Program-made: the position numbers and the translations under genes | In this document: piece after piece, positions 2,248 to 52,148 of the stretch | Layout: the number at the start of each line of letters is the position of its first letter | How positions within the stretch are numbered: position 1 is the first letter of the stretch | Source: Eledone cirrhosa | Lineage: Eukaryota | Length of the DNA stretch: 64,000 bases | NCBI GenBank assembly: GCA_964016885.1 | Contig: OZ024743.1 | Span: 88,040,001 to 88,104,000 of the forward strand | Direction: 5' to 3' | Notes under the pieces: model-generated | Told to the model about the DNA's origin: nothing | The model's database searches: none | Seen by the model: the letters and a program-made list of their open reading frames with translations, nothing else

Positions 2248-2584
2248 ACAGTATATATGTATACAGTATATGTATGTATACATATTTACATACATGACTC
2301 ACACTGACATTTGCACACACACATATGTATACATATATATATATATATATATATATATATATACACACACACATATATATATATATATATACACACACAC
2401 ATATATATATATATATATATATATATATATATATATATATATGTATATGTAGAGGTTATATTTAATTTGTTGGGATACAACAAGCTTAAAAATATTTTTA
2501 TAACTGATATAAAGCACTCAATAGACTATTGGAGTAAATATACAATATATTAACAAATGGAAACTTTATTTATAAAACCATATT

Positions 2585-2650
2585 TATTTTATTATACATA
2601 TTTCAAGGGCCACCAAGGCAAATTATGGTGCGCTTTCATCAGATAAAATA
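2585..2650 (-). ncRNA. Type I minimal hammerhead (family A)
   Basis: Reverse complement of the motif at 2853-2918. Confidence 0.8.
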
Positions 2651-2689
2651 CAATACAGATTAGTTTTATAAATAAATATTGACATACCC

Positions 2690-2752
2690 AAGGGCGGTGC
2701 CCCAGCATGGCCTCAGCCGGATGGCTGAAACAGGTAAAAGAGTAAAAGAGTA
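2690..2752 (+). mobile_element. 63-bp retroposon 3' tail insertion with TSD
   Basis: ataccc duplicated at 2684-2689 and 2753-2758; ends in (aaaagagt)n; similar tails at 8095-8155 and 31905-31962. Confidence 0.75.
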
Positions 2753-2852
2753 ATACCCTGAAAAAAAGACAACCTTAACGGTTGGAGCTTCCTGGATAGG
2801 TTGTCTTTTTTCAGGGTATGTCAATATTTATTTATAAAACTAATCTGTATTG

Positions 2853-2918
2853 TATTTTATCTGATGAAAGCGCACCATAATTTGCCTTGGTGGCCCTTGA
2901 AATATGTATAATAAAATA
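2853..2918 (+). ncRNA. Type I minimal hammerhead (family A)
   Basis: tattttat-CTGATGA-aagcgcacca..tggtggccctt-GAAA-tatgta-TA-ataaaata; perfect 8-bp stem I. Confidence 0.85.
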
Positions 2919-3025
2919 AATATGGTTTTATAAATAAAGTTTCCATTTGTTAATATATTGTATATATATATATATATATATATATATATATATATATATA
3001 TATTTATATATATATATATATATAT

Positions 3026-3203
3026 AATTGTTTCTACTTTAGGCACAAGGTCAGTAATTATCCCAGTGTATTACTGCTACTTTATTTTATCGACCCCGTA
3101 AGGATGAAAGCCAAAGTCAACCTCGGCGGGATTTGAACTCAGATCATAAAGGGACGTAACTATGCTGGAAAGCATGGCGTCCGACCCTCTACCGATACTG
3201 CCA
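3026..3203 (-). mobile_element. SINE (same family)
   Basis: Same B box, core and tail. Confidence 0.85.
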
Positions 3204-4052
3204 TATATATATATATATATATATATTATGTATGTATGAAATGAATAGATATATAGACAGATTGATAGATACGCACACATACACACGCACATAGAGACAC
3301 ACATTCGCTCACTCAAACTATATAATTAAAAGGCCGTGATAGATCTATTGATGTACTAGTTATAGTTTGTCACAGAGAGAGATTGTAAAGAGATATTTCT
3401 ATCATAAATAGTAAATTATCAACGTTTATCTTTCACAAATCAAACGTTCCAATTTCCACCAATTCGTATGAGAAGTCATCCGTGTAAAGACCTGACAATA
3501 TCTTCCAACCTATCACCTCTTATTTCATATTCTCTAACGTCGTTCAAATGCTCTGTCTTTGACATAGTTTTAGTCTTAGGTCTTCCCGCGTCTTGATACG
3601 CATACGACAGCAAACTTCCGCCATCATGGACGATCTGCCGCAGCCTTCTCCGTACCTTGTCCAACTGGTTCTTTTGTGTTTGAGATTCTTCTGGAATGTC
3701 CAGTGCCAAATGTTTTTGCTATGGACCTTCCCCGCTTTTCTTTCTCCGGTGTCAACATTCTCTATATGTATGTATGGGCACGTAAATCGCGCACGCACAC
3801 ACGTATACACACACACACAAACAAACAAACACACGCACACTTCAGAAGATCCCAGAATAATGTGAAGGCGCGATAATAATAAATATTTGCTATACGGTTT
3901 ATATATATATATATATATATATATATATATATATATATATAATCCTTATCGAGCCCTCTTCGGATTTTGGTCTTCATATTTATTATTACTACATATATAT
4001 ATATGTATATATATATGTGTGTGTGTGTTTATATATATATATATATATATAT

Positions 4053-48464: not shown

Positions 48465-49555
48465 GAAATAGATAGATATATTTCTTTATTAGCCACAGGG
48501 GCACAAAAGAAGGGGACAAATACATAGATAGATAGATAGATAGATAGATAGATAGATAGATAGATAGATAGATAGATAGATTTCTTTATTTACCATAAAG
48601 GCATAAAAAGAAGGGACAAATACAAAGGGGGAGTTTACATATAATCGAGTAAAAAGGGTGTAACATGAAAATAATCGAAAATAACCTCAAAAGGGAGGGG
48701 ACGTGATGGGGGTTGCACACACCCCCGAAAAAGTGTGCAATCCTTTGCCCGGGGAGCACATGGAGAAGGTGCTCCCCTCTCCTTTACTTCTTTACCTACA
48801 GGATGGTATACAGAGATGGCTCATTTACACGAGCCATTCTCGCCACTATCACCCACCTTTCATAAAACTGCCTGTGGCCAAGCACCTCTCTCTCCATTCT
48901 TATCCTTCTTCAATAGATAGATAGATAGATAGATATATAGATAGATAGATAGATAGATAGATAGATAGATAGATAGGTAGGTAGATTTCTTTATTTGCCA
49001 CAAGGGGGCAAAAAGATGGGGACAAATACAGAGAGGGGAGTTTACATACATGCGTGTAAAAAAAATAGAATTAATAACAATAACAAATAACAATTAACAA
49101 TTGAAATCCCCAATAGGGGGGGGGGGCACGTTATACATGAGTTGTACACACCCCGAAAAAATATACAACCCTCATCTCCAGGAACACGAAGACTGAGCGC
49201 TCCTCTCCTCTCTTCCTCTTTTTCCTCAACCTACAGGTTTATATAGAGAGAAGGCCCAACCACTCGGGCCATCCTTGCCACATTCACCCACCTTTCGTAA
49301 AATTTGTTGGGGTGCAGCACCTCTCTCTCTCTCCACTCTGATTCTTCTTCTAAAATGATATTCGAAGAAGCGAACCAGTTGTTCGCCGGAGAGAAAGGTA
49401 TCTGACCTCAGCCCTTTCAGTCTCATCCACCATATAGCCTCTTTCACCATAGCCATTACACAGAGGAAAACCGCCTCTCCTTCGTTTTTGAAGGAAGGTG
49501 GCGGTTTGATCGCAATAATGGACTCGGTGGTCAACCGGATTTGTCCCTTCCTGCA
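48465..49555 (-). mobile_element. Three stacked Tx1/L1-like LINE 3' ends separated by (TCTA)n
   Basis: AMVKEAIWWMRLKG..RRRIRVERE..FYERW C-terminus (two copies); shared 3' UTR ending aataaagaaa (three copies). Confidence 0.65.
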
Positions 49556-50777
49556 TTACTATTGGTATTAGACAAAAGGCCACCTTATCATCTAGCTCTT
49601 CTATATAAATGTCTAGAACCAAGAGGGACACGGGTAGTGGACTATGATAATACTATGTGTATTATCAAGTGCGTGTGTGCGTTGATGTTCTCTCTCTCTT
49701 TCATTCACTGCCTCCGTCTCTCTTGCTCTCCCCATCTATCCCTGTTATATGCAAATGGAACCCACACCCTGGCCGCCCCGCGGTCTCGGCGGATAGAATA
49801 GAGAAGGTGTTTCTCCGAAGGATAGTGAGGGAGACGCGTTAAAAGAGCCCTTCCAGCTTGCGAGGCTCACACCTGCGGGTAGCCAACTCCGTTGGTGGTA
49901 GTCAGTAGGGAGGTGATCCTAGGGCCAAGGACTCCAGAAGTTTCCACTGACGATGTTGTTATTGTAAAAACAGAAGAAATAAGAGTATGATATAAAAAGA
50001 AATGAAAAAAGGAAGGACCGCTTAATCTCGCTGGAGTCGTATGGACGGCATTTTAAACCTCGTGGTGCTAATCCCCATCCGGGCCGAAACAGCCGATTTT
50101 TCCCAGGGGGGGGGGGAGAAACAGCGAGAGAGAGAGAGAGAGAGAGAGAGAATGTGGTAAAGAGATACAGAGGAAGAATCGACCCATGTACTTGACTGGT
50201 TGGTACTTTATATGTTGACCTCGAAAGGATGAAAGTTGACTTGAGCGGGATTTAAACTTTGAATGCATTGAGCCGAAATAAATATCACAGCAATTTTTAA
50301 TCCGACGTCCTAACAACTCTGCTACTGCACCGCCTTACTAACAAGATACCATCAAGATACCAAGTGACTAGCTTCGGCTGGGGAATATTTAAATACTTGT
50401 GAAATACTGACACAACATACAGCTTTGTAACATATGTCTTTTTACTTAGATCTACATAAGTATGTGTCTATGCTTGATTGTATGTATGTGTGTGCGAGTG
50501 TATTATATATGTATGTATGCGTATGGGGATCTTGCGAGTGCTCAGATGAAACACCAGAGTAACAAGACTCACTGCTTAGCTATAATAAATGAATATGTAA
50601 ACTCTACTTCGGTATTGAGTGCTTTTTCTCATATCCGTCAATAATACACACACACACAATATACATATATATAAATATATATATATATATATATATATAT
50701 ATATATAAATATATATATATATATATATATATATATATATATATATATATATATATATATATATATATATATATATA

Positions 50778-51210
50778 TATCAATGATATTAAATAAATGG
50801 AAACTATATTTATAAAACCATATTTATACTATTATATATATTTCAAGGATACCAAAACTTTGGTACGCACTCATCAGATAAAATACAAAGTTTGTTTTAT
50901 AAATATTGACATATCCAGGAACGAGATCTTAACAGTTCAAGTTTATCCAGGAAAAACTTGAACCGTTAACATCTTCTTCCTGGATATGTCAATATTTATA
51001 AAACAAACTTTGTATTTTATCTGATGAGTGCGTACCAAAGTTTTGGTACCCTTGAAATATATATAATAGAATAAATATGGTTTTATAAATATAGTTTCCA
51101 TTTATTTAATATCATTGATATTATACTTCAGAAAACTTGTCGAGTGCTTCTAATCAGTTATAAGCATATATATTTGTTGAATTACCAACAAATTAAATAT
51201 CCCTTTGCTT
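50778..51210. mobile_element. Family A' fold-back element; HHRs at 50825-50885 (-) and 51013-51073 (+)
   Basis: Near-identical to 45942-46372, including the central junction. Confidence 0.88.
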
Positions 51211-51255
51211 ATATATATATATATATATATATATATATATATATATATATATATG

Positions 51256-51392
51256 TTATTTCGGGTTGAATCGGAGGTAACCACAGTAAGTAAGGTACTC
51301 AATACATAGCAGAGTATAACAGTATTAATATAGATGAGATTCTACAGGACTAGAACTGTTTCATTCTTGAGAAATCATCAGGAATCTCCTGA
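51256..51392 (-). mobile_element. Family B element; HHR at 51336-51388 (-)
   Basis: Minus strand: gagattc-CTGATGA-tttc-tcaa-gaat-GAAA-cag-ttctagtc-ctg-TA-gaatctc; perfect 7-bp stem I. Confidence 0.85.
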
Positions 51393-51414
51393 TATATATA
51401 TATATATATAATAG

Positions 51415-51632
51415 AGGCTTTCACCGTATTTTTTTACTAAGGCAGTTTTAGCCTGATAGTGGGGTTTAGAACCCTCAGAGAAATGGAAAAAGATGAGTAT
51501 TGACGTACATCTTTTTCCATTTCTCTGAGGGTTCTAAACCCCACTATCAGGTCAAAACTGCCTTAGTAAAAAAATACGGTGAAAGCTTCTCTTTTCTAAT
51601 TTCAAACTTGCTCGCTGTTCCAAAACATACTT
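51415..51632. mobile_element. Family G fold-back element (other pieces at 28392-28534 and 52214-52274)
   Basis: Arms ~51417-51495 and ~51508-51588; the same sequence occurs three times, each time flanked by (TA)n. Confidence 0.75.
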
Positions 51633-51747
51633 ATATATATATATATATATATATATATATATATATATATATATATATATATATATATATATATATATAT
51701 ATATATATATATATATATATATATATATATACACATATATATATATA

Positions 51748-52148
51748 TGCAAAAGTTCTATTTAAAATTGTTGGGATACAACAAGTAAATATTTTTATAA
51801 CTGATATAAAGCACTCGATAAGTATTTGGAGTAGATATACGATATTAATAAATGGAAACTATATTTATAAAACCATATTTATTTCATTATACATATTTCA
51901 GGGATACCAAATTAAATTATGGTATGCCTTCATCAGACAAAATACAATATATAACAGTTTTACAAATAAGCTTTGACGTACCCTTTTAAAATGCAACCAT
52001 TAATTTTGGAAGCCATATTTTTGTAAAACTGTTATATATTGTATTTTGTCTGATGAAGGCATACCATAATTTAATTTGGTATCCCTGAAATATGTATAAT
52101 GAAATAAATATGGTTTTATAAATATAGTTTCCATTTATTAATATCGTA
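51748..52148. mobile_element. Family A fold-back element; HHRs at 51880-51944 (-) and 52042-52106 (+)
   Basis: Inverted arms ~51836-51967 and ~52018-52148; complete CTGATGA/GAAA cores. Confidence 0.88.

Follow-up and report, generated by a model that had tools for sequence, protein, structure and literature searches.

A 64,000-nt stretch of the Eledone cirrhosa genome (assembly GCA_964016885.1, contig OZ024743.1, positions 88,040,001 to 88,104,000 of the forward strand; hereafter the window, numbered from its first letter) contains nine copies of a repeat, family A/A', which the initial annotation described as hammerhead ribozymes with covarying stems. The question that this locus raises is whether the hammerhead fold has been kept by selection and, if so, in what kind of element. 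The answer that we consider very probable is that the copies are truncated pseudo-long terminal repeats (pLTRs) of Penelope-like elements (PLEs) with Hydra-clade motifs, and that their type I hammerhead is likely to be selected in the active parents, where it is predicted to cut only as a dimer.

The motif runs in the order stem I, CUGANGA, stem II, GAA, self-complementary 8-mer, H17 and stem I, and is exemplified by the following copy:

52042 to 52106, plus strand: type example; stem I pairs 52042-49 and 52099-106; 52050-56 form the core; stem II has 3 bp, then C·C, then 6 bp; GAA, 52087-89; self-complementary 8-mer, 52090-97; H17 is A52098

The predicted cut after 52098 agrees with hammerhead numbering. 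The nine insertions hold 14 motifs, present as a two-strand pair in five insertions and singly in four, and it was found that 13 of the 14 have an intact CUGANGA/GAAA/UH core in type I order, the exception being 46185(+), with A13U. The fourth stem II position is a C·C mismatch in 14/14 window motifs and in 236/259 genome motifs retrieved with a pattern in which C·C was not fixed; H17 is A in 250/259. An extra residue separating position 9 from 10.1 is not kept in these motifs, which have the near-constant C·C mismatch instead, and the pair 10.1-11.1 is A-U, G·U, G-C or U·U rather than a fixed G10.1-C11.1. A U·U at the base of helix II is likewise found in axolotl HHR_Amex2 (PMC7229834). An Rfam scan of the window gave no hammerhead family in the best 150 of 217 matches, the matches there being microsatellite-driven and of miRNA type.

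The initial annotation held that stem II changes in sequence and stays paired. The four stem II pairs that it quoted are all present in the window, but pairing is not kept throughout: besides the C·C mismatch, stem II of 9765(-) carries G·A in its upper part and A·C at its base, in 19059(-) there is a C·U mismatch and the U15.2-A16.2 pair is broken, and four of the five A' arms in the window have U·U at the second base pair. Variation in stem I was described as G-U-compatible, which is true of 13 of the 14 motifs (A-U/G·U only) and fails at one U·U in 50877(-), and the variability of core position 7 is seen as CTGAAGA in both arms of the insertion at 34710. The nine window copies alone could not show selection on the fold, and they are not nine independent tests, because the arms of one insertion are near-identical and the copies at 45942 and 50778, which have a junction in common, are 98% identical. 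The hammerhead reading holds once many more copies are added.

The A/A' sample comprised 285 arms, of which 220 were near-full, leaving 157 at one per insertion. About two-thirds of the 157 were retrieved by patterns in which the core and the 5' stem II side are both fixed, and the core statistics are those of the 50 insertions retrieved without core-fixing patterns. In these 50, the 11 core sites had no shared alleles and five private changes in 533 cells, whereas N7 was U in 36, A in 6, C in 5 and G in 3, with three shared variants. Outside the core, the 8-bp stem I has three common variants, each an A-U/G·U exchange, and in stem II both sides have changed at three pairs, with G·U intermediates in 14 copies at one of them and in 3 and 2 at the others. 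Pairing was kept in 14/28 variant types shared by at least three insertions, compared to 19/94 private cells (p=0.003). A U·U version of A' (GAGTGC) was considered as the norm of its subfamily and rejected, as it accounted for 6 of the first 100 matches and had been over-sampled by the search pattern.

The comparison was extended across families in the host genome, which is 3.0 Gb in size and microsatellite-rich. The generic motif with C·C had 80,173 matches compared to 9 for the reversed pattern, which excludes a chance origin. Changing G8 gave 1,392 matches, which we read as decay because they are scattered over all families, and N7 was not U in 27 of the first 100 generic-motif matches (counted by eye). 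One distant relative lies in the window:

44034 to 44104, plus strand: family E, alike in architecture, with C·U at the C·C position and a stem III palindrome with a GCGC centre

Clustered representatives were scored with no pairing filter and with a few false or decayed rows kept in: 279/338 cells were paired in 26 rows, relative to 218±9 after shuffling (G·U 39, A·C 13), and 202/247 in 19 rows, relative to 156±7 (G·U 30, A·C 9). For 19 hand-picked families and subfamilies, 88.1% of cells were paired as opposed to 68.6% when shuffled, with 0/500 shuffles as high; covariation was 0.663 versus 0.295 shuffled, and slid registers were 30-49% paired. Stems I and II are supported by covariation across families, measured against shuffles that ignore relatedness. 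Taken together, the contrast between core and N7 and the shared-versus-private pairing within A/A', and the pairing across families, support the earlier proposal of selection on the fold in the source lineages.

Covariation might instead come from correction of hairpins at the DNA or reverse transcriptase (RT) level, by template switching in quasi-palindromes, which we regard as highly improbable. The insertions that these elements make can indeed be palindromic, a hairpin in the A' 3' untranslated region (3'UTR) is a hotspot for their breaks, and within A/A' G·U does not significantly outnumber A·C (9:5 shared, 16:15 private, p=0.53). However, such correction would give perfect pairs and not strand-specific G·U (39 compared to 13 A·C across families), and it leaves unexplained an invariant single-stranded core with a free N7, the kept C·C mismatch (236/259), and stem I covariation over 50 nt.

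Longer parents that bear an open reading frame (ORF) are present in the genome (L036, L222, L213 and L216), full-length ones having the structure pLTR-ORF-long 3'UTR-pLTR, and the main window arms match parent 3' ends at 87-95% identity in most alignments. In L036, a truncated copy in inverted orientation is followed by a pLTR, an ORF that has a single stop close to its end, 1.5 kb of 3'UTR, another pLTR and (TA)n, and L222 has an unbroken 745-aa ORF between two same-strand hammerhead motifs. Each subfamily has its own ORF, with amino acid identity to that of L036 of mostly 87-96% for A1, 75-83% for Ax, 60-79% for A2 and 56% for A' (L216). Exact patterns matched the genome 6,208 times for the A1 word, 13,315 for A2 and 7,322 for the A' type, each control giving 0, and a word just 3' of the motif matched 41,112 times (control 0), so there are at least 41,112 A/A' arms.

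The L222 ORF contains the motifs LDIANYY, GLYRDD, NFLD and YVGST, in the order RT and then GIY-YIG-type endonuclease, which on visual comparison match the Hydra alignment given in the supplement of PMC8557442. It also has the Hydra-clade features DKT (118), CNCRNKSNC (604, the CxCX5C linker), CDLC-E (702) and CRH (729), which apart from small variants are kept in six relatives; the RWK position is RWR in L036 and L223, RSR in L222, and RWK in a window ORF at 60969. The likeness to the Hydra-clade PLEs of Craig et al. 2021 (PMC8557442) takes in the C-terminal GIY-YIG-type endonuclease, DKT, the CxCX5C linker, the CxxC and CxH motifs, a (TA)n target and a 3' hammerhead. Here, 96/130 arm ends are followed by (TA)3, and the window insertions almost all adjoin (TA)n, the run being short at some. 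Traits of endonuclease-bearing (EN+) Penelope-like elements are present as well, namely pLTRs, partial tandems, an inverted 5'-truncated copy and an optional tail. Hydra-clade examples include Hydra-1_Obim and Penelope-13_HM, and among the Hydra elements with hammerheads is one from Octopus bimaculoides; in Penelope-13_HM there is an inverted 5'-truncated copy, with a hammerhead on both strands (PMC8557442). By the same source, Hydra elements are generally <3 kb, whereas those described here are ~4 kb with a 1.5-kb 3'UTR, and the Hydra rows of its File S2, as far as available, include none with 3 bp, C·C and a long stem II or with an AU-N4-AU stem III. Among the 120 listed of 308 homologues of the ORF, at 32-50% identity, three Argonauta hians proteins are the only ones with a species name, which would fit a cephalopod host. 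By the protein motifs of the parents, the nine insertions are best placed as 3' ends (pLTRs), 5'-truncated and in many cases inverted, of Penelope elements resembling the Hydra clade.

All nine insertions were found at the coordinates first reported for them (2452-51748). Five are palindromic, with one motif on each strand (2452, 34710, 45942, 50778 and 51748). In the list, C3 is the position given for each hammerhead.

2452 to 2957: inverted insertion, subfamily A2; left arm (-) tailed, right arm (+) tail-less; hammerheads with C3 2642(-), cut predicted after 2593, and C3 2861(+), cut predicted after 2910; 3' end of full-length L213 matched at 89-92%
9662 to 9950: subfamily Ax; left arm (-) 9662-9844, hammerhead C3 9765; right arm, tail alone, (+) 9874-9950; 91% to L225
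10136 to 10407: subfamily A1; left stub (-) 10136-10184, beginning 2 nt past the predicted cut; right arm (+) with hammerhead C3 10210, predicted cut after 10267, plus tail; 92% to L222
18872 to 19150: subfamily A2b; tail and decayed hammerhead (C3 19059) on the left arm (-); no hammerhead on the right stub (+)
28991 to 29219: subfamily A'; stub of reversed tail followed by a right arm (+) whose hammerhead has C3 29119 and a predicted cut after 29163; 93% to L216
34710 to 35311: inverted insertion, CTGAAGA variant; hammerheads 34812(-) and 35123(+); right arm tailed; junction, 23-nt tandem repeat at 34926-35015
45942 to 46372: inverted insertion, A'; hammerheads 46041(-) and 46185(+, core change A13U); right arm tailed
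50778 to 51210: inverted insertion, A'; hammerheads 50877(-) and 51021(+); right arm tailed; junction as in 45942
51748 to 52148: inverted insertion, A1; tail and hammerhead 51936 on the left arm (-), hammerhead 52050 on the right (+); 95% to L222

The ends of the arms fall at two places. Of 130 arm ends, 67 fell between +46 and +56 past the predicted cut and 53 between +143 and +149, five continued into the ORF and five lay elsewhere. The two end points (~+56 and ~+145) are short ATAT runs, the alignment ends including overlap with the target repeat, and the tail between them is 89 nt, compared to the 30-40 bp given for PLEs in PMC8557442. The RT may prime from the cut (TA)n at two internal sites, on a template that would be uncleaved or re-joined RNA, because the copies read through the cut site. 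In the Poseidon element of Anolis (PAc; Frangieh et al. 2024, PMC11167929), the tail is likewise flanked by two internal RT start sites, the target is likewise AT-rich, and the hammerhead lies upstream of the start sites. The end points described here match the target repeat, whereas the PAc start site is not homologous to the cut DNA, and the tail is in the 5'UTR here (ATG ~188 nt past the cut), whereas that of PAc is inside the ORF (PMC11167929).

Several results weigh against a selected, cleaving hammerhead in Hydra-clade-like PLEs. The 22 sites 3' of the ribozyme, with one shared allele, are as conserved as the core; only the free N7, and not core invariance alone, is therefore ribozyme-specific. 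The pair is broken in 14/28 shared variants, including an entire subfamily with an upper stem II mismatch, U·U stands at the stem II base in 20 of the first 100 A' matches, the G·U excess within A/A' falls short of significance, and the shuffle controls take no account of relatedness among the sequences. A Pfam search of the ORF detected neither an RT nor a GIY-YIG domain, and a PDB search with it gave no match. In a search for copies whose 5' ends lie at the cut, 16/184 arms lacked a CUGANGA box at the expected distance, of which ~2-4 start near the cut, with no clear peak. In vitro, PAc with catalytic hammerhead mutations still inserted (PMC11167929).

These results bear on a possible, though clearly less likely, alternative, namely that the motif is retained for its folded RNA, as a signal for RT binding, RNA dimerisation or the choice of start site, with cleavage weak or unneeded. 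It would account for inserted copies that read past the cut and end at +56 or +145, for tolerated mismatches at the stem II base, for G17 in 3/157 insertions, and for the normal insertion of PAc hammerhead mutants, for which the available text reports no RNA reads ending at the cut (PMC11167929). In contrast, the catalytic positions are constant in all families and N7 is free, as catalysis demands, and H17 is almost always A (250/259).

We also considered how the inverted insertions form. After removal of pairs with long internal (TA)n, 31 of the 33 inverted insertions had a tail on one arm and none on the other (p=1e-7 relative to 0.5). The arms differ by >600 nt in 14 pairs, the tail-less arm being longer in eight and the tailed arm in six, and seven of the eight cannot be simple fold-back copies: fold-back copying cannot supply the tail in these 7/14, because the short arm has it and the long arm does not. 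L213 was set aside from this argument, as its long arm holds the upstream pLTR. One tentative and rather doubtful explanation is double priming, in which the two target ends would start RT at different sites (+56 and +145) on two pLTR RNAs joined through stem III, so that the ribozyme would double as a dimerisation signal. Against it, the arms are always of one variant except in L108, and a one-sided tail and self-priming models have already been published (PMC8557442, PMC3846280). Trimming of one tail by the endonuclease remains as a rival that would give the same pattern. In L108 (1330-1830), the arms have different A2 stem II variants (seven differences) with identical inner flanks, which makes it a candidate two-template insertion. 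Hybrid arms between subfamilies were sought in the 33 pairs and none was convincing, as L059 was misclassified, L079 looks like two insertions, and L108 is within A2.

It is quite unlikely that the short palindromic units are non-autonomous elements, resembling miniature inverted-repeat transposable elements or retrozymes, that spread as units of their own. The insertions at 45942 and 50778 would fit such spread in their identity (98%) and common junction, and animal retrozymes derive from PLE pLTRs (bioRxiv 2026.07.22.740005). However, other insertions differ in junction and arm length (130 to 4,499 nt between cut sites), the units are inverted and not tandem arrays, and the shared-junction word is ordinary 3'UTR in 9/12 other copies; spread of A' palindromes as a unit was rejected genome-wide. 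Non-LTR retrozymes share the type I hammerhead, weak helix III and dimer action (PMC7229834), whereas they are head-to-tail non-coding arrays (PMC7229834; bioRxiv 2026.07.22.740005) and the copies described here are inverted truncated ends of coding elements: those in the window are inverted or single and match coding elements. We prefer to read the window copies as most likely dead products of PLE insertion that are decaying neutrally. In the five palindromic ones, read-through transcription of either strand is predicted to give a long hairpin in which the motif is buried, so they are unlikely to be working ribozymes in place. Among the A' copies, three of a minority variant (28991, 45942 and 50778; 501 genome matches) lie inside 22 kb, and all three break at one 3'UTR hairpin and have unrelated unique flanks.

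The form in which the hammerhead may act is suggested by stem III. With a pattern that fixed the outer AT..AT, the centre of stem III was ATAT, GATC, GCGC or ACGT, which are perfect palindromes, or ATGT, which has G·U in the dimer, in 248/259 motifs. The inner pairs were kept in 47/52 cells, relative to 39.4±1.7 when shuffled, with nine G·U and no A·C. As a hairpin of 2 bp and a tetraloop, stem III is computed at +4.7 kcal/mol, and the two-strand duplex gains 2.2-3.2; the dimer is the likely active form because the hairpin costs energy and the duplex gains it. The monomer hammerhead fold was 3-5 kcal/mol above the minimum-energy fold in 5/5 copies computed, none of which had a stable monomer stem III. 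These energy calculations make it likely that the hammerhead cuts as a dimer, as proposed for PLE hammerheads in PMC4209133. Parents have two same-strand motifs ~4 kb apart, and the two pLTR hammerheads of one precursor RNA may pair through the palindromic stem III and, when paired, would release a unit-length RNA. Cleavage of 52042-52106 had been put forward as a check that could refute the ribozyme, for which this monomer is ill suited, its hammerhead fold being 4.7 kcal/mol above the minimum-energy fold. Its failure to cut would not refute the ribozyme, because in published work minimal PLE hammerheads showed no cutting in monomeric form (PMC4209133) and cutting by a PLE hammerhead required the protein of the element (PMC11167929).

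Hammerheads in PLE pLTRs, covarying families and opposite-strand pairs have already been described (PMC4209133). What is new here is the C·C variant, the 89-nt tail, and the one-arm tail in 31/33 inverted insertions. A literature search that covered sources other than subscription journals and Repbase found nothing on a hammerhead stem II C·C variant and nothing on these families beyond Craig 2021; on the priming of inverted, tailed Penelope insertions it gave a review of human elements.

Other repeats and ORFs were observed nearby. At 60969-63287 (+), the window has an uninterrupted ORF of 772 aa from a further Hydra-like family (RWK, DKT, CNCTYPDNC) at 42-45% identity to the A1 ORF; upstream of it are a palindrome in (TA)n (~60341-60918) and an inverted older ORF fragment (58720-60022 (-)), and a hammerhead of its own was not found with confidence. 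A repeated hammerhead-like motif with a different stem III adjoins (TA)n at 7863(+), 15935(+) and 51381(-), and a third palindromic repeat family, CTGANGA...GAAA with a CCAC-N-GG stem III, is at 47841(-)/47920(+) and 28895-28902(-). Elsewhere, L042, L166, L178, L025 and L079 represent hammerhead-like families with an AC-N4-GT stem III, nearer to published Hydra/Penelope forms. At the junction of the 2452 palindrome (~2697-2752) there is a ~56-nt piece of another repeat, 80% identical to 31907-31962, which we take to resemble the 3' end of a cephalopod short interspersed nuclear element and for which a template jump is a possible source. The window also has a 26-nt minisatellite of ~153 copies (11026-14973) and a perfect 80-nt array of nine copies (30015-30754).

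With ~80,000 copies in at least a dozen families, lineage-level changes are cleanly separable from private ones in this genome, and this gives good comparative evidence that the core chemistry and a dimer-type stem III were maintained in active elements. A candidate structural contact is suggested by the near-constant C·C mismatch. These results provide context for the role of the hammerhead in Penelope elements, which was dispensable in one in vitro study and which the Naiad clade is without, and the two fixed end points together with the one-tail pattern offer a precise handle on the formation of inverted PLE insertions.

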